Origin: a virus
Virus genome (UHGV): UHGV-0255412
Reading direction: 5' to 3' (one strand)
Length of the DNA: 20,521 nucleotides
In this document: in pieces, positions 2,221 to 11,267 of the stretch
Position numbering within the stretch: position 1 is the stretch's first letter
How the letters are laid out: the number at the start of each line of letters is the position of its first letter
Notes under the pieces: generated by a model
Seen by the model: the letters and a program-made list of their open reading frames with translations, nothing else
What the model was told of the DNA's origin: nothing
Databases searched by the model: none
Program-made: the position numbers and the translations under genes

Positions 2221-3180
2221 ATGAAAATTTGTATCGACGACGGCTCCACCAACATCAAGCTGGCATGGACTGAGAACGGCGAACGCCGCAACGCCATCAG
2301 CCCGAACAGCTTCAAGTCGGAATGGTCTGCGCCGTTCGGTGGCACGCAGCCCGCGAACTACATGCTTGATGGCGTGCGCTATGGTTTTGATCCGGTCAGC
2401 GATCGCTTTGTCCAGACGACCGACACGCAATACCAATACAGCGATGTGAATGTCATTGCCATTCATCACGCGCTGGTCAAATCAGGCATCACGCCACAGG
2501 AGGTGGATGTGGTTGTCACCCTGCCACTGAGCGAGTATTTCGACACAAACGCACAGCCGGACATGGCCAACATCAACCGCAAAAAAGCGAACGTTATGCG
2601 CCCGGTGGAGTACCAGAACGGTGAGGCATTCACTATCCGTAACGTGCGGGTTATGCCTGAATCCATTCCGGCAGGCTTTAAGGCACTGGCTGACATGAGT
2701 CCGTTTGAATCCCTGCTGATTGTGGATTTGGGCGGAACCACGCTGGATGTGGCAAAGGTTCAGGGACAACTGGCAGGTATCAGCCAGGTGTTTTGCGATC
2801 CACACGTAGGCGTTTCCCTGATGGCCGATGCCGTACTGTCGGTGATGGCCACTAACGGTATGCGTACCAGTCACCACATCGCCAATACCATTATCGAACA
2901 TCGCCATGATGAAGCCTGGCTGCGCCAGCACATCCACAATGACGCGCATTACGTCAGCCTGATGGCGGTTATTCGTGAAAAGGAAGAAACACTGAAACAA
3001 CGCGTGATCCGCGCGCTGGCGGGTTTTTCGGGTTACGGGCGGGTGATGGTTGTCGGTGGCGGGGCGGAGATTGTGGCACCCGCTATCCGCGAAGCCTGCG
3101 GAGTTAATGCGACTTTCATCGCGGACGAGGTGCCACAGTTTGCTCTGGTTAATGGGCTGTACGCAATGGACAAGGAGTAA
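2221..3180 (+). CDS. parM: ParM/StbA-family actin-like partition ATPase
   Basis: N-terminus MKICIDDGSTNIKLAW...ISPNSFKSEW...YSDVNVIAIHHAL...EVDVVVTLPL...DLGGTTLDV closely matches my recollection of plasmid R1 ParM (MLVFIDDGSTNIKLQW...). RBS AAGGAA 7 nt upstream of the ATG. 319 aa, typical ParM length. Confidence 0.85.
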   Translation: MKICIDDGSTNIKLAWTENGERRNAISPNSFKSEWSAPFGGTQPANYMLDGVRYGFDPVSDRFVQTTDTQYQYSDVNVIAIHHALVKSGITPQEVDVVVTLPLSEYFDTNAQPDMANINRKKANVMRPVEYQNGEAFTIRNVRVMPESIPAGFKALADMSPFESLLIVDLGGTTLDVAKVQGQLAGISQVFCDPHVGVSLMADAVLSVMATNGMRTSHHIANTIIEHRHDEAWLRQHIHNDAHYVSLMAVIREKEETLKQRVIRALAGFSGYGRVMVVGGGAEIVAPAIREACGVNATFIADEVPQFALVNGLYAMDKE

Positions 3181-3184
3181 ACCA

Positions 3185-3496
3185 ATGACGACACCAACCA
3201 GACGGATAAGTTTCTATCTGAAGCCCGCCGCCGTCAAGAATGAAGGCGAAGCATGCGCATGGCTGGACAGCCTTACACCAGAAGCCCGCAAAAGCGGCCA
3301 ACGCGTGGCTTTTCTGGCCGGGCTGGCACTTCTGAAAATGAATCCGGCAGAGGCTTACCGACTGGCTGCATGGGCTGACGATGAGGCGTTATCAGTGACA
3401 CAAACCAGGACAGAGTGCCCCTTGTCACAGCCAGTACCAACCGCACAGATAACCAGTCAGATGGCTGGGAATATCCGGGCGTTGTTTCCTGAATAA
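3185..3496 (+). CDS. parR: ParR/StbB-like partition adaptor (DNA-binding)
   Basis: 104-aa ORF immediately after parM, with AGGAG 7 nt upstream of the ATG at 3185. The N-terminal pattern RRISFYLKP...LDSLTPEARKSGQRVAFLAGLALLK resembles R1 ParR (RRTIAFKLNP...LDSIPQGERSRLNRAALTAGLALYR). The longer track ORF starting at 3050 overlaps parM and was trimmed. Confidence 0.7.
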   Translation: MTTPTRRISFYLKPAAVKNEGEACAWLDSLTPEARKSGQRVAFLAGLALLKMNPAEAYRLAAWADDEALSVTQTRTECPLSQPVPTAQITSQMAGNIRALFPE

Positions 3497-3503
3497 CACA
3501 ACA

Positions 3504-3523
3504 TCAGGGCGAGTTCGCCCTGA
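3504..3523. terminator. Perfect hairpin (TCAGGGCGA-gt-TCGCCCTGA) between convergent genes; possible bidirectional terminator
   Basis: 9-bp perfect inverted repeat between the parR stop (3496) and the stop of the minus-strand 198-aa gene (3542). No strong T-tract on either side, so terminator function is uncertain. Confidence 0.4.
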
Positions 3524-3541
3524 TGCACAAAGCATGCTAAA

Positions 3542-4138
3542 TCAGAATTTAGTATGCAATTTATCTACCAATCGCTTAGCCTCATTAAGTAGTTTTTGGT
3601 ATTCCCTGCTATCGTTTTCCTGATCTTCATACGCTCGCCGAACACGCCATCGAAGAGCAAGGCATTTTAAATTCCGGTAAAACCTCGGATTACGCTTGCG
3701 GCACTCTTCCATATAAGGTTCAAAATGGACATCAAGAAAGATTAAGGTAGAACCATAAACACGATATAGATACCGCTCATCATACAAACCGTTATTCACG
3801 GCATTAGCACAACGCTCCCACTCATTAAAAATGAGTTTTAATGCTTTTGCTCCATCCGTTTGAGAATATTCCTCTTTTCCCCAATCAGCGATCGGAAAGT
3901 TATGGCGATCCTTATGAATACGTAGCACTTCTGACCACGCATCAACTATGTCCTTGTTACGTTTATATGCAGCCTCGAAATCCAACGAATTTTTTTCGCG
4001 CGACGTTTTTCTTTGATTTCGTATGCTAATCACTGCAATAAGCGCACCCGCAGCTCCTGGATAAAACGTAGGGCTGGATTCCCAAATACTGGAAAAAATT
4101 TTTCCTATATAACTAAGGGCAGAAAGAACTAGATCCAT
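3542..4138 (-). CDS. Hypothetical protein (198 aa) with a hydrophobic N-terminus; candidate accessory or defence cargo
   Basis: Long ORF on the minus strand within a visibly AT-rich segment that contrasts with the GC-rich phage backbone. N-terminal hydrophobic stretches (LVLSALSYIGKIF..., GAAGALIAVISI) suggest a membrane anchor. I recognise no family from the sequence. Confidence 0.6.
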   Translation of the reverse strand: MDLVLSALSYIGKIFSSIWESSPTFYPGAAGALIAVISIRNQRKTSREKNSLDFEAAYKRNKDIVDAWSEVLRIHKDRHNFPIADWGKEEYSQTDGAKALKLIFNEWERCANAVNNGLYDERYLYRVYGSTLIFLDVHFEPYMEECRKRNPRFYRNLKCLALRWRVRRAYEDQENDSREYQKLLNEAKRLVDKLHTKF

Positions 4139-4149
4139 TGTATTTAACC

Positions 4150-4174
4150 ATAAAAAATGGGAGCCAAAGCCCCC
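4150..4174 (-). terminator. Intrinsic-terminator-like hairpin plus U-tract on the minus strand, 12 nt upstream of the 198-aa gene start
   Basis: Minus-strand RNA would read GGGGGC-uuug-GCUCCC (6-bp stem with one G-U pair) followed by AUUUUUUAU. On the plus strand the same stem has an A-C mismatch, so the structure is better on the minus strand. Confidence 0.45.
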
Positions 4175-4206
4175 ATTCTACTGAAACTACTCTAAAAAAA
4201 CAGGAG

Positions 4207-4251
4207 TTAAACGTCCCAGTTTTCTTCGCTATAGATGCGGCGTACGGTCAT
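4207..4251 (-). CDS. Candidate 14-codon leader peptide (MTVRRIYSEENWDV) with a strong Shine-Dalgarno sequence
   Basis: Minus-strand AGGAGA 7 nt upstream of an ATG, then 14 codons and TAA, followed by the terminator-like hairpin and the 198-aa gene. Too short to call from composition alone. Confidence 0.2.
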   Translation of the reverse strand: MTVRRIYSEENWDV

Positions 4252-4491
4252 AGTTAGTCTCCTCTTTTCAATCATTTAAACATCACTAATTTACTTTTAA
4301 CATGGAGATGGTTTTACAGTTGTCAACCACCTCCCCCAAATCTGTTGGGGTAAGCTATCACGCCTACCATACACATACAATGATGAGGCTATATCGTGCA
4401 GCCACACCGACAAGGATAAGTACATCTTCTTCGCTGTCTTTATGTGACCAAATATAGCACATTTGAAGCGATATACATCCTGTAATGATAC

Positions 4492-4518
4492 TGCACAATA
4501 GTGCACAAATTTGCACAA
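4492..4518. repeat. Three direct TGCACAA repeats phased at exactly 10 bp (cTGCACAAta gTGCACAAat tTGCACAAtt)
   Basis: Read directly from the sequence at 4492-4498, 4502-4508 and 4512-4518. Additional copies of the heptamer occur at 4584-4590 and 3524-3530. Confidence 0.6.
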
Positions 4519-4891
4519 TTTTTTTGAACGACTTTTTGCCCTTCCGGCCCGCGTGGCGGCTGGATCCGTCAAGGATCCGTGCGTGCACAAAAAAACACGC
4601 TTTTTCTGCGCGCAGGTGACGGGGGAACAGCCCGCGTTTCAGGGGGTAAATAGCATTCCCTGAACGATGTCGCAGCGACACAACAGAATGGCTGTATCGC
4701 TCACGCTGAGCGTGAAAAAGACGTAAGGTGTTCTGATTTGATGGTATGAAAGGTAAGGCCGTCAAAATCGCACTGAGGCGGCGAGAACATGCAGTCAGCG
4801 CGGCGGGATTGTGTAAGAGTCTGGCCGTCGATGATAGCGATAAGTCGGAAGACGTCGTGAAATTATCTGATTGATACAGGAGCTGGAGAGT

Positions 4892-4916
4892 CGGGGCATA
4901 AATTTTTTATGCCCCG
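4892..4916. repeat. Near-perfect 25-bp palindrome / hairpin (CGGGGCATAAA-ttt-TTTATGCCCCG)
   Basis: 11-bp stem with a 3-nt loop, read directly. No trailing T-tract on either strand, so not a canonical intrinsic terminator. Lies ~100 bp upstream of the 175-aa gene. Confidence 0.5.
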
Positions 4917-5017
4917 GCGAAGCAGCAGACAAGCGAAGCGCGTCAGTGATGCGGCACCTTGCCGACCACACTTCATAAGTGCAAAATACGAGCAAAGAAA
5001 TCAATGGAGGCTGTTCT

Positions 5018-5542
5018 ATGGTCATTAATTACAAGCAGTTACGAGAAAAACGAGATCAGGTAAAGGAGAGTTTTCGCCGCAATGAAGACCTGACCCCGCT
5101 TGTACGCATTGCCCAGGGAATTGTTGATGCTTATGAAATCTCTCTGGAGCTGCCATCACAGACATGGACGGATAGCGACGGTAATCGCCAGCATTACGTT
5201 TCATGCGGACTGGAAACGGCTGAAGGGTTTCGCAGAATGCCTTTATCTCAGATTCCTGCCGCTACCCCCAAAGCAAGGGGCGGCAATGATGAGCGAAAAC
5301 TGATTTTCAGCATTGAGACAGTGGTTGACGACACACCTGGCGAAGTCGCCTTCGTGCATACTCCTCTTTCGATCGCAATGTATAACGATGAAATACAGGT
5401 TCGCGTTAATAATAATATCGTGCCACTTAAAGAAGGTAATTCACCATACACCACCGTTTGTGAAGCCATTCAATATTACGTTCTCTCTGAAATTGATAAT
5501 CTCAAGCCTGACGGCACCCAGAAAATGGTTCAACTCTGGTAA
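5018..5542 (+). CDS. Hypothetical protein (175 aa); orphan accessory gene
   Basis: GGAGG 7 nt upstream of the ATG at 5018. The track ORF from 4979 has no RBS and was trimmed. Followed by a strong terminator. No recognisable motifs. Confidence 0.6.
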   Translation: MVINYKQLREKRDQVKESFRRNEDLTPLVRIAQGIVDAYEISLELPSQTWTDSDGNRQHYVSCGLETAEGFRRMPLSQIPAATPKARGGNDERKLIFSIETVVDDTPGEVAFVHTPLSIAMYNDEIQVRVNNNIVPLKEGNSPYTTVCEAIQYYVLSEIDNLKPDGTQKMVQLW

Positions 5543-5547
5543 AAAGG

Positions 5548-5574
5548 ACAGCCCCATCACGGGGCTGTTTTTTC
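5548..5574. terminator. Rho-independent terminator (CAGCCCC-atcac-GGGGCTG followed by TTTTTT), shared by convergent genes
   Basis: 7-bp GC-rich stem and T6 run directly after the stop of the 175-aa gene. The stop codon of minus-strand gene Q (5557-5559) lies inside the loop, and an A-run on the other side would give a U-tract for the minus-strand transcript. Confidence 0.65.
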
Positions 5575-6603
5575 ATCAAGAAGAGCATAAGAATTAAAAC
5601 GGATCACCTCTTCGCCAAGCCAGTCATTGATGTGCTTCATGGCCTCCATAACGGGCATCAGCTCGTTAATTGCGTAAACCCGCGCGGCCTTTTCCACATC
5701 ACCAAACGCACTTTTTTCACCCGGCATCGCCCCCATCAGTTGCGGCGGAACGCGGTGCGCAGCCAGCACATCATCACGGGATGCCGCCTTAACATTCATG
5801 AACTCATCCTTTGCGGTGATCTGCTGGAACGGCAAAATTTGCACACCTTCTTTGCCCCCGTTGGGCGCATGAATGAGCACGTTTTTAAACGCACCACCAC
5901 CACGTGCACCCTGTAGCGTTTCTTTCAGGGAGTCCATGCTTTCGCGGTTTACCTGCGCTGCACCGATGTAGATGATACACCCGGCGTGGGATCCGTTGTC
6001 GTAATACAGTTTTCTGAACATGTCCGCCGAATGAGACAGGCTGGCCGAGAGTAATGCGCCGAGATATTCCGGCATGCCGTAGATTTCCTGGTTAATGTCA
6101 GGATTCATCAGGTGGCACACTTTGCCAGGGCGAAACTGAAACGCGTCCTTGCCATCCTGCACATACCACCATGATTCAAGATCGCTTCCGCGTCGCATGT
6201 ATTTCGCCAGTGCGTGCCGTAATTTAAGCGGTTCGCCGAGCATATTGTTTCGAAGCTCAAGGAATGCGTTACCGAACACAAACCAGTCCAGCGCCAGCGC
6301 CGAGAAATCCTGCCGGGAAAGCAGCGGGTGCGGGATGTAGCAACCGAGTAATACATTGCGCTTAAAGTAAAGCGCAGACTGATGCCAGGACGTTTGCCGG
6401 GCAGCTCTTGCCAGACCGTACCAGTCCACCGGGGTTTCATACCACCGCCCGTTATCAGCACAGTACATATTGTCCAGCAGGTCATGCCCGGTCAGGCGAT
6501 AAGGACCATCAAATGTGAATGCACTGAGCGATGATTCTTTCCTGAGCGCATCAGCGAGATCAATGCGTGAACTCATGCGCACTTTTTTATTTTTTCTGCT
6601 CAT
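5557..6603 (-). CDS. Q: Portal protein gpQ
   Basis: 348 aa (P2 Q is ~344 aa). Sits directly downstream of, and 1 nt overlapped with, the terminase gene on the minus strand, as in the P2 P-Q operon. Confidence 0.85.
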   Translation of the reverse strand: MSRKNKKVRMSSRIDLADALRKESSLSAFTFDGPYRLTGHDLLDNMYCADNGRWYETPVDWYGLARAARQTSWHQSALYFKRNVLLGCYIPHPLLSRQDFSALALDWFVFGNAFLELRNNMLGEPLKLRHALAKYMRRGSDLESWWYVQDGKDAFQFRPGKVCHLMNPDINQEIYGMPEYLGALLSASLSHSADMFRKLYYDNGSHAGCIIYIGAAQVNRESMDSLKETLQGARGGGAFKNVLIHAPNGGKEGVQILPFQQITAKDEFMNVKAASRDDVLAAHRVPPQLMGAMPGEKSAFGDVEKAARVYAINELMPVMEAMKHINDWLGEEVIRFNSYALLDEKTAP

Positions 6604-8354
6604 CAGAACTCCATAACCGTGAAACGCTCGTTTTCTCCTTCGCCGCCAATCGGTTCGTTAATGACAGCAAGCATGGTTGCCCACGCAAGGTCGCCGTGGC
6701 TGATCCCCCTCGCGCGGTCCGTTTCGTAAGTGATAAAGCCGCCCGGTGTTTTCACCTTACGCACGGCGTTAAAGGCCGCAACCAGCTCGCGTTCGGCGCG
6801 ATCGTATTCCCACCGCCCGGCACGCATTATTTGCAGCATTTTCAGTACCAGCGACCGTTTTGATGACAGCGTGAAGGTGTACGGAATAGCAGCAGGGAAA
6901 AACCGTTTCACTATCTGATAAACAGCCTCCCCGTTCCCGCCCGTCACATCAATGCCGATGTGTTCCACGTTGTAGCGATACGTGAACTCTTCAATGACTC
7001 TGGCCTGTTCTTCAAACTCCAGCCCCTGAACGCGTCGCGTCTCCACCGTTCGAAAACGGCCACCAGGAACAGCCGGAGGAACCACCACGGACACAGCGCC
7101 GCTGTCGCCGTTGCCACTGCTGCCGTTTGCGTCATACCCAATCCATACCGGACGATTCCCCATCGGGCGGGGAGCAAAAGGTTTCCAGTCTTTCCAGTCG
7201 TCGTATCCGTCAACACCACAGCCAATCAGGATATTCAGGTTAAATGCCGATTCCCCTTCGCGGACAAACTCACACATATAGAGATTGAGGAACTCGTCTT
7301 CGGTGTTTTCATCACGAATTTCATCAATATCGGTGTGTTTCCAGCCGTGATTAACCACATCTTCCAGCGTGACAATTTGCCGCCACGTCCGGTCAGGGCA
7401 GATAAGCCCGTTATGCAGCGTTTTCCAGTCCACAGAAAAACGCTGGCGTTTATGCGAGGCCTTTTTCTCGTTCCAGCGGTCGCCGTTCCAGTAGGCGTAT
7501 GCCTCGTGCGTTTCGGTGGATGGCGTGGAGAAGTAGGTGCGCCGCAGTCCGCTGAGGGTTGCCATAGCGCCAGCCACCTTGCGCAGTTCAGCAAAGCGAC
7601 TGACCCAGAAAAATTCATCAAAATAAAAATTGCCCGTATAGGACTGTGCCGACGCAGCAGAAGTACCGAGAAAATGCAGCTCTGCGCCGTTGGAGAGGAT
7701 GATTTTATCGCCCCCTTTCAGCTCCACATCAACTTCAGCCGCGGCTTTCTGAATAATGCTTTTAAACTGGAACGCCTGACGACGCGACGCAGACAAAAAA
7801 ATCTGGTTACGCTGGTAAGGTTGCGCCACATCGTCACGCAGCGCCATCAGCAGAGCTTCCTGTGCAAAATACCAGGTCGCCCCAATCTGTCGGGATTTCA
7901 GGATCATCCTGTTACGTATCCCGGCTTCCCTGCAAAGGGTCAGGGAGTCAAACCAGCCCCGCTGATGCCACTCCAGCCTGCTGATGATTTTTTCCCGCAG
8001 TGCGGCAATCTGCTCCGGCGTGAAATGATTTTTGAGTTTTTTCGCCCGGCCTTTCTTTCCTGTGGCCGTCGCATCCGGCTGGCCATCATGCAATTTTTTA
8101 AGCTGCCGGGTCAGCAGGTCTATTTCCTTGAAGTCACCACCTGTTTTATTCTGTTTTTCAGTGAGCTGGATGAGGCGCGCATCGATGGACTGCGTGACAC
8201 GCTGCACGGGTGGCGTTTCATCCCACTGGTCGCGTTTTTTCCACGCATAAATCGTGTTCGGGTTTATTCCCATCAGACGTGATATTTCTGCGGGCGGATA
8301 ACCCTGCCAGTAAAGTTGCCGCGCACGCTGGCGCACAAAAGCGTCCTGAATCAT
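6603..8354 (-). CDS. P: Terminase large (ATPase) subunit gpP
   Basis: 583 aa (P2 P is ~590 aa). N-terminal helix-turn-helix-like region (YPPAEISRLMGINPNTIYAWKKR) and length/position are typical of P2-family terminase ATPase. Divergent from gene O. Confidence 0.9.
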   Translation of the reverse strand: MIQDAFVRQRARQLYWQGYPPAEISRLMGINPNTIYAWKKRDQWDETPPVQRVTQSIDARLIQLTEKQNKTGGDFKEIDLLTRQLKKLHDGQPDATATGKKGRAKKLKNHFTPEQIAALREKIISRLEWHQRGWFDSLTLCREAGIRNRMILKSRQIGATWYFAQEALLMALRDDVAQPYQRNQIFLSASRRQAFQFKSIIQKAAAEVDVELKGGDKIILSNGAELHFLGTSAASAQSYTGNFYFDEFFWVSRFAELRKVAGAMATLSGLRRTYFSTPSTETHEAYAYWNGDRWNEKKASHKRQRFSVDWKTLHNGLICPDRTWRQIVTLEDVVNHGWKHTDIDEIRDENTEDEFLNLYMCEFVREGESAFNLNILIGCGVDGYDDWKDWKPFAPRPMGNRPVWIGYDANGSSGNGDSGAVSVVVPPAVPGGRFRTVETRRVQGLEFEEQARVIEEFTYRYNVEHIGIDVTGGNGEAVYQIVKRFFPAAIPYTFTLSSKRSLVLKMLQIMRAGRWEYDRAERELVAAFNAVRKVKTPGGFITYETDRARGISHGDLAWATMLAVINEPIGGEGENERFTVMEF

Positions 8355-10466: not shown

Positions 10467-11267
10467 ATGATTACTCCTGCACAGCAACACTGGCAGAACG
10501 TGATGGCACAGCGCGCAGGCCGGGCGAATGAAGGCGTGGACCATGCCGCGCGTACCGCGCATGAAGAGGTGCTGTATCGTCTGCGTCTGGCACAGGCCCG
10601 TCTTAAGGGCGTACAGGCCAGAAGCGCGAAAGCCGCCATCAAAAAAGAGTTGTTGCCGGACTTTTCCGGCTGGATTGAGGGAACGCTGGAGGCTGACGGC
10701 GGGCAGCAGGACGAAGTGATTGCCACGCTGATGGTGTGGGCGATTGACTGCGGCGATCTTCCGCTGGCGTTGCGTATTGGTGCGTATGTGGTCCGTCATA
10801 ACCTCATTATGCCGGATAACTTTGGCCGTACGGCTGCCACAGTGCTGACCGAAGAAATCTGCAACCCGGTACTGACGCAGGCCGGGACGGATGCCGACGC
10901 GGATTTGTCCGCCTTTATCGAACCACTGGATACCCTCCGGGAGATTGTCACCGACCAGGACATGCCGGACGAAGTGCGCGCCAAATTATGCAAGGCGTGC
11001 GCCTTTGCCCGTCGTGGTCTGACCGATGCGGACAGCATGGCCTTATCACTGAAGCTGCTGCGCGAAGCGATGCACCTGAACCCGAACGCAGGTGTGAAAC
11101 GCGAGATTGCAACCCTTTCCCGCGCCCTGAAAAAAGCCGACTCCGCAGCCGAACCAGAAGACGCCAGCGCACAGCAGGCGCAGGACGAAAGCAGCAAAAG
11201 TAAAAAGACAACGCGGAAGCCTGCAACACGAAAAACCACCGCGACGCAGAAGGCGAAGCGCGGTTAA
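10467..11267 (+). CDS. M: Terminase small (endonuclease) subunit gpM
   Basis: 266 aa. Matches recalled P2 M blocks (KKELLP, DMPDEVRAKL, AGVKKEI) and has the lysine/arginine-rich C-terminal tail. GGAGAG RBS. Confidence 0.85.
   Translation: MITPAQQHWQNVMAQRAGRANEGVDHAARTAHEEVLYRLRLAQARLKGVQARSAKAAIKKELLPDFSGWIEGTLEADGGQQDEVIATLMVWAIDCGDLPLALRIGAYVVRHNLIMPDNFGRTAATVLTEEICNPVLTQAGTDADADLSAFIEPLDTLREIVTDQDMPDEVRAKLCKACAFARRGLTDADSMALSLKLLREAMHLNPNAGVKREIATLSRALKKADSAAEPEDASAQQAQDESSKSKKTTRKPATRKTTATQKAKRG

Follow-up and report, generated by a model that had tools for sequence, protein, structure and literature searches.

The 20,521-nt stretch of DNA analysed here (UHGV virus genome UHGV-0255412, below "the window") is a P2-family prophage of Escherichia coli, of P88 type (genus Xuanwuvirus, Peduoviridae). 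Positions 4492-4633 of the window are probably its cohesive-end (cos) site. Such a site is an expected, ordinary feature of a P2-like genome, and it is of a known kind. A previous, sequence-only reading of the same DNA had put cos in a non-coding interval of ~880 bp, which measured 879 bp (4139 to 5017, between a 198-aa gene on the minus strand and a 174-aa gene). Gene order and a layout homologous to that of the P2, 186 and P4 cos sites both support this placement, but its cue was wrong. The GCGTGGCGG run, likened at the time to part of the P2/186 cohesive ends, lies in a variable spacer, and the cohesive-end homologue is found ~55 bp to the right, at 4613/4615-4633. From left to right, the site and its right flank consist of the following parts:

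4492..4518, plus strand: R1-R3, three copies of TGCACAA; predicted distal part of cos, in the arm becoming the right end of the packaged genome
4519..4525, plus strand: run of seven T immediately 3' of R3 (top-base frequency 0.98 over 4519-4527 in 96 distinct relatives)
4526..4583, no strand: spacer of fixed length and variable sequence, with GCGTGGCGG and both GGATCCG copies
4584..4595, plus strand: R4, TGCACAA with an A-run, 29-31 bp ahead of the cohesive-end homologue
4596..4612, no strand: linker from R4 to the cohesive end, terminating in TGCGCGC
4613..4633, plus strand: predicted cosN (terminase nicking region), with GGTGACGGGGGAACAGCCC at 4615-4633
4634..4651, plus strand: right flank GCGTTTCAGGGGGTAAAT, retained together with cosN in some relatives

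The three TGCACAA copies, noticed before for their exact 10-bp spacing, were confirmed at 4492-4498 (R1), 4502-4508 (R2) and 4512-4518 (R3). A pattern of three copies, with up to two mismatches, had a single occurrence in the window, and 100 shuffles that preserved its dinucleotides produced none. As a lone 7-mer, TGCACAA was not enriched in the window (6 observed, 5.15 expected), and therefore the signal is in the arrangement and not in the word. A fourth copy, R4, had been missed; it lies at 4584-4590, and its A-run extends to 4595. Likewise confirmed was a GC-rich stretch with a GGATCCG direct repeat. The G+C content rose from 0.37 over 4450-4549 to 0.61 over 4550-4649, and GCGTGGCGG occupies 4551-4559, ahead of the two GGATCCG copies (4562-4568, 4573-4579). 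A search for RNA families over 4100-5100 gave nothing near threshold.

The repeats were compared in position with the cos sites of other P2-like phages. Passages citing Ziermann and Calendar (1990) ascribe 19-nt 5' cohesive ends and a 55-bp core to the cos sites of P2, 186 and P4 (PMC3931495, PMC5694545, PMC5247547). Offsets of the repeat cores were measured from the first cohesive-end base. For P2, 186 and P4, this base came from annotated ends that had been defined by experiment. For PSP3, phiCTX and phiRSA1 it was taken from the annotation of the record or from a published sequence of the end, and for Smp131 it was placed by analogy with P2. The repeat words and offsets were:

P2: TGCAT at -123, -111, -101, -29
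186 and P4: TGCAT at -124, -111, -101, -29
PSP3: TGCAT at -120, -111, -101, -29
phiRSA1 (Ralstonia): TGCAT at -129, -110, -100, -29
phiCTX (Pseudomonas): GCAG, six copies, at -109, -99, -83, -69, -37, -28
Smp131 (Stenotrophomonas): GCAG, five copies, at -140, -128, -111, -101, -28
Klebsiella 3LV2017 group: TGCACAA at -121, -111, -101, -29
Window, counted from 4613: TGCACAA at -121, -111, -101, -29
Window, counted from 4615: TGCACAA at -123, -113, -103, -31

The layout of the site in the window corresponds to that of experimentally defined cos sites. In alignments with P2, 186 and P4, its R1-R3 fall opposite the TGCAT repeats, and the distance from the start of the third copy to that of the fourth is 72 bp in the window, P2, 186, P4, PSP3, phiRSA1 and the Klebsiella group. 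The sequence between these two copies cannot be aligned among P2, P4, 186 and the window. The repeat sets of phiCTX and Smp131 are less regular than the others. Judging from these sequences, the repeat layout appears to be a conserved part of the P2-family cos, with a word that varies by lineage (TGCAT, TGCACAA or GCAG).

The likeness to the cos sites of P2, 186 and P4 extends beyond the repeats. All lie between an accessory hotspot and the portal gene, with P2-type terminase genes near, and all have a G-rich segment, a predicted cohesive end in the window, preceded by an A-tailed copy at ~29 bp and by phased copies at ~101, 111 and 121-124 bp. The window differs from them in its word (TGCACAA instead of TGCAT), in an unrelated spacer sequence, in the 174-aa gene between cos and the portal gene, and in having ends that are predicted from sequence. 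Compared with P2, the distance from R4 to the GG is 2 bp longer, and the cohesive-end homologue agrees at 13/19 bases. The phiCTX cos is alike in that annotated R repeats flank its cohesive end, with GCAG copies at -109, -99 and -28 among others; it is unlike the window in its word and in its larger number of copies.

R4 corresponds to TGCATTAAAA, with which the block common to P2 and P4 around the cohesive end begins. From our own reading of this comparison, we take the block to be the published 55-bp core. The distal phased repeats at about -101, -111 and -121 were derived here and lie outside the published definition of cos. They may already be known to specialists. The GenBank record of phiCTX does annotate R repeats around cos.

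Conservation pointed to the same unit. Similarity to 16 P88-like phage records begins at ~4489-4492, at R1, with unrelated cargo to the left. In the Enterobacter phage phiT5282H, which belongs to a different genus, only 4492-4636 is kept, at 75% identity. What is conserved is thus a unit of ~145 bp with the iterons at its left end. A first sample of relatives had been picked by the iterons and was thus unable to show their conservation, and a second was picked by the cohesive-end sequence alone. The latter gave 121 distinct sequences, 120 after removal of one unrelated chance match. In 117 of these 120, all four copies are kept: R1-R3 at an exact spacing of 10 bp, none with more than one mismatch, and R4 in addition. 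The iterons are thus conserved in related elements. Among the 117, R4 starts exactly 72 bp past R3 in all but two. Across the whole sample, R4 was found in 119/120, with the R3-R4 distance within 1 bp of 72. R1 is the most degenerate copy (TGCACGA, CGCACAA), and R3 is nearly invariant. The T-run after R3 was also found in phiT5282H and in the Klebsiella 3LV2017 group.

The spacer behaves differently: its length is fixed and its sequence differs freely between sub-lineages, being exchanged as a whole in more distant relatives (phiT5282H, the loci L126 and L147, and others). The GCGTGGCGG stretch has a mean top-base frequency of 0.70, and P88 reads GCGTGACAG there. For the cosN segment, in the relatives picked by iterons, the top-base frequency is 0.975. 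The right flank GCGTTTCAGGGGGTAAAT is retained in L126, which diverges just past it, and is not retained in phiT5282H.

The predicted cohesive end, GGTGACGGGGGAACAGCCC (4615-4633), is identical to that of P2, GGCGAGGCGGGGAAAGCAC, at 13/19 bases in an ungapped count. Among the IMG/VR contigs with the triple iteron, a group related to Klebsiella phage 3LV2017 appears to link the two. After R4, it reads GCGCGCA-GGCGAGGCGGGGGAGCAAG-CGCGCGC, and by our own count GGCGAGGCGGGGGAGCAAG agrees with GGCGAGGCGGGGAAAGCAC at 15/19 bases. At the equivalent place, the window reads GCGCGCA-GGTGACGGGGGAACAGCCC-GCG. The linker junction GCGCGCAGG is the same in the window and in the 3LV2017-type sites, where it precedes GGCGAGGCGGGGGAGCAAG. 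On this sequence comparison, GGCGAGGCGGGGGAGCAAG would be the intermediate between the cosN of P2 and that of the window. In other relatives, the variants GGTGCCGGGGGAACAGCCC and GGCGACGAGGGAAGGGCGC occupy the cosN position. Cohesive ends of like character, some of them only predicted by analogy with P2, are on record for more distant P2-like phages (GGCGTGGCGGGGAGACGAG, GGTGAGGCGGGGTCCAAC, GGTGGGGCGGGGTCACAACT).

A profile was built from seven cos cores (P2, 186, P4, PSP3, phiCTX, Smp131 and phiRSA1). Its best match in the window was at 4584-4628, on the expected strand, with a weak E value of 0.25. The alignment to the P2 and 186 cos regions, suggested by the sequence-only reading, succeeded in part. 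The repeats align in position, but neither the P2 nor the 186 cohesive end has a match within 3 mismatches in the window. Another placement of cosN, at the AT-rich 4588-4606, was considered by equating TGCGCGC at 4607-4613 with the TGCGCGC that follows the P2 cosN. It was dropped because the P2-like cosN of the Klebsiella group directly follows GCGCGCA, and because it would break the distance from R4 to cosN.

The surrounding genes are in the order seen in P2 and P88: replication, parM/parR, variable cargo, the site, the 174-aa gene (missing from P88), portal, large terminase, scaffold, capsid and small terminase, with the gpP- and gpM-type terminase genes near the site. P2-like phages carry cos and a defence-gene hotspot between the replication and portal genes (PMC9122126). 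The following genes of the window are referred to below:

15-2144: replication gene, 3' part
2221-3180: parM
about 3188-3496: Plasmid_stab_B gene, ParR/StbB-like
3542-4138, minus strand: DUF4760 cargo gene of the cos-proximal hotspot, 198 aa, phrog_2284
5018-5542: 174-aa gene, function unassigned, phrog_5091
5557-6603, minus strand: portal gene (P2 gpQ homologue)
6603-8354, minus strand: large terminase gene (P2 gpP homologue)
10467..11267, plus strand: small terminase gene, 266 aa, P2 gpM family (Pfam PF05944, E = 5.6e-37; phrog_74)

The portal and large terminase proteins are 66-100% identical to those of relatives bearing the same site. Among 5426 complete E. coli genomes, 1153 have DNA matching part or all of 3400-5600; the best match has 98.2% identity.

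Recognition by terminase is the most likely role of the repeats. In the mechanism that we propose, the four TGCACAA copies would be recognition sites for the phage's own terminase, most likely for its gpM-type small subunit. R1-R3 and R4, about seven helical turns apart, would be bound by one assembly, with the spacer between them bent or looped. The assembly, once bound, would position the large subunit on cosN, 30 bp away. Staggered nicks in GGTGACGGGGGAACAGCCC (4615-4633), ~30 bp past R4, would then leave 5' cohesive ends of ~19 nt. The nick positions, the identity of the reader and the looping are thus predicted features. P2-type terminase reportedly prefers closed circular monomers (PMC2231350).

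Two observations bear on the reader. All four copies carry one word per lineage, and this word changes jointly between lineages that share a host (P2 and the P88-like phages, in E. coli), which argues for one phage-encoded reader rather than a host protein; satellites copy the word of their helper. In addition, the fixed 72-bp distance between R3 and R4 is suggestive of a single protein assembly that holds both R1-R3 and R4. The small terminases of phiT5282H and 3LV2017, both of the TGCACAA type, are 58% and 50% identical to that of the window, compared with 34% for P2 gpM. No solved structures related to the small terminase were found.

In this mechanism the repeats would act like the cosB of phage lambda. 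There, the R3, I1, R2 and R1 sites are bound by gpNu1 and IHF (see also PMC4669245). Both sites have copies of a short word near the nicking site, spread over ~100 bp, which are thought to anchor the small terminase and to position the large subunit. They are unlike in sequence and in the family of the small terminase, which are unrelated, and no IHF site was identified at the window cos. We make no claim that the repeats lie on the first-packaged end, as those of lambda cosB do.

Several points weigh against this interpretation of the site. The likeness of the cosN sequence is by itself weak, at 13/19 bases and a profile E value of only 0.25, because of which the sequence argument convinces only jointly with the repeat geometry. 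The two also differ in register by 2 nt: sequence places the first overhang base at 4615 and repeat geometry at 4613, so that the register of cosN is uncertain by about 2 nt. Of the phage records with matches, not one begins at the predicted cosN. Records starting at a physical end were found for none of the P88, phiT5282H and 3LV2017 types, the P88 paper does not mention cos, and the retrieved P88-like phage records have no cos annotation under the matches. One record, LR595891 (Xuanwuvirus P884B11; loci L001/L007), was linearised within the spacer, between the equivalents of 4536 and 4537. Because it has no terminal redundancy, this start is probably arbitrary and not a genome end. As to the small terminase as the predicted binder of the repeats, the repeat word and the similarity of the small terminases could agree simply through common descent, and the IMG/VR locus L115 has TGCACAA repeats, yet its small terminase is only 28% identical to that of the window.

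In the best of the alternatives, the repeats are part of cos and are read by the large subunit, by another phage protein or by a host DNA-bending protein, or act mainly as intrinsically bent DNA that shapes the substrate. Geometry and conservation reveal a constraint and do not name the reader, runs of T and A follow R3 and R4, the phiCTX record annotates an IHF site as well as R repeats near cos, and L115 shares the word despite its very divergent small terminase. A host protein, however, is at odds with the occurrence of both the P2-type and the P88-type word in phages of E. coli, and bending alone would not require an exact 7-mer in four copies. We regard this alternative as unlikely, though it retains some weight next to recognition by the small terminase.

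Much less probable is a role of the iterons in transcription, as operator or activator sites for the 174-aa gene (counted as 175 aa in the sequence-only reading, which had raised this option), for a leftward cargo gene, or as a minus-strand site of the lambda CII type. By the criterion used for the latter, TTGY-N6-TTGY straddles the -35 region of a promoter. The minus strand does read TTGT-N6-TTGT-N6-TTGT, 4489-4549 has a weak blastn match to a region of phage 434 annotated with a CII-binding site (77% identity, E = 1e-3), and the TGCAT repeats of P2 adjoin the annotated start sites of the old-tin transcript. However, no sigma-70-like promoter was found on either strand of 4100-5100. The 174-aa gene is absent from P88, P88_4B11, phiT5282H and most other loci, all of which have the iterons. 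The cargo genes next to the site vary in orientation: in these three phages they are on the plus strand and end, just before R1, in a terminator-like hairpin, and therefore a leftward promoter has no consistent gene to serve. The TGCAT form found in P2, 186 and P4 does not fit TTGY-N6-TTGY despite its equal positions, and R4 and the fixed 72-bp distance would be left unexplained.

A partition centromere (parC), bound by the ParR of the parM/parR genes at 2221-3496, is the least credible of the proposals for the iterons. Iterons phased at 10 bp are typical of type II centromeres such as parC of plasmid R1, and the short repeats of the window, phased at about one helical turn, resemble those of ParMRC systems. 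The parM gene and the Plasmid_stab_B gene also lie only ~1 kb to the left. Unlike in such systems, the iterons are neither linked to parM/parR nor co-occur with them. Of 77 iteron loci in which the upstream DNA extended over 4.5 kb or more, 36 are without ParM, some of them phages whose replication protein shares 95-98% identity with its counterpart in the window. In the first sample, 22 loci of the same cos type, with the same minimum of upstream DNA, were without parM. The equivalent repeats occur in P2, 186 and P4, with no parM annotated in the parts of the records examined. These three elements are not known to carry parM. Variable cargo also intervenes between parR and the iterons.

A better candidate for the centromere is directly upstream of parM, as ACGGGA-N8-TCCCGT palindromes at 2094-2113 and 2167-2186. 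Each lies within one of two 42-nt direct repeats (2078-2192) that straddle the end of the replication gene. The palindromes were present in all 47 ParM loci tested. In the comparison by upstream DNA, they were present in 40 of 41 loci with ParM and in 2 of 36 without. It was thus another repeat, and not TGCACAA, that tracked parM. From this distribution, the repeats at 2078-2192 are likely to be the parC, or ParR operator, of the prophage partition genes.

A correct placement of cos would fix where the genome ends lie, and how far the defence-gene hotspot extends, in a common prophage type. The site itself is an expected P2-like feature; that its repeat geometry is shared while the word differs by lineage adds modest interest. 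One generalisation, which we offer tentatively and hold to be somewhat less than an even bet, is that the set of three phased repeats plus one is a general specificity code of P2-family packaging, with each small terminase reading its own word. If this were true, the functional cos would be ~150 bp long, and not the usually cited 55-bp core, and phages and satellites would fall into packaging-compatibility groups by word. A word that sets terminase specificity would predict which satellites are mobilised by which helper, and it would provide a handle for the design of P2/P4-type cosmids.

In satellite P4, cos is said to be the only part in common with the helper (PMC9122126). Here too, three distal copies and a fourth occupy the P2 positions, with a different spacer. 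Six P4-like satellites were similar; their contigs carry the labels Enterobacter, Tatumella, Citrobacter, Kluyvera, Photorhabdus and uncultured bacterium. Their distal copies are at -124, -111 and -101, their spacers differ, and the fourth copy is at -29 in five of the six, being mutated to TGCAC in L189. No P4-like satellite with a TGCACAA-type cos was found among six Psu relatives (reference genomes) or among the IMG/VR loci. Under the generalisation, the P88-type group (with matches in roughly a fifth of the complete E. coli genomes) would exclude classical P4-like satellites, because TGCAT is the word of all seven examined, and would admit other, capsid-encoding satellite-like elements with TGCACAA, for example L115 and L126.

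L126 (IMGVR_UViG_2711768167_000011) is satellite-like and has genes for an integrase, a Toprim/DUF5906 primase and a major capsid protein of the P2 family. Its P88-type cos is at about 8642 in the orientation used, between the integrase and capsid genes. What it has retained relative to P88 is confined to the iterons, the fourth copy, the cohesive-end segment and ~20 bp to the right. L115 (IMGVR_UViG_2515154021_000006; cos at ~2953 in the orientation used) has a P4-like integrase, three TGCACAA copies and a fourth 71 bp past the third. A gpO-like scaffold gene, a P2-family capsid gene and a gpM-family small terminase gene follow the repeats, and no portal or large terminase gene was found within 7 kb. 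L115 may be a capsid-encoding satellite of P2-like phages. A third locus, L122 (IMGVR_UViG_3300014970_000032), has a P88-type cos at ~7143. On one side is a pair of DNA methylase/ATPase-like genes (judged by eye), and on the other are genes resembling P2 tail genes. No homologue of a portal, terminase or replication gene was found in L122, which is therefore probably a rearranged or decayed prophage.

To the right of cos, a perfect 11-bp hairpin is found in the window:

4892..4916, no strand: CGGGGCATAAA / TTTATGCCCCG

In P88, it is just beyond the stop of the portal gene, in the position of the tQ terminator in P2. The 174-aa gene sits between this post-cos hairpin and the portal stop codon, and only a minority of relatives have it (phage 569R5, L040, L120). 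Its product had no Pfam hit and no PADLOC hit, and defence-system models matched neither it nor the DUF4760 protein. The locus has the appearance of a second, small insertion spot, across cos from the hotspot.

Upstream of the DUF4760 gene, the minus strand carries a 14-codon open reading frame, MTVRRIYSEENWDV (about 4250-4206), with a GAGGAG ribosome-binding site. A terminator-like hairpin follows at 4179-4154, just upstream of the DUF4760 start at 4138. Together, the reading frame and hairpin at 4154-4250 look like a leader peptide with an attenuator.

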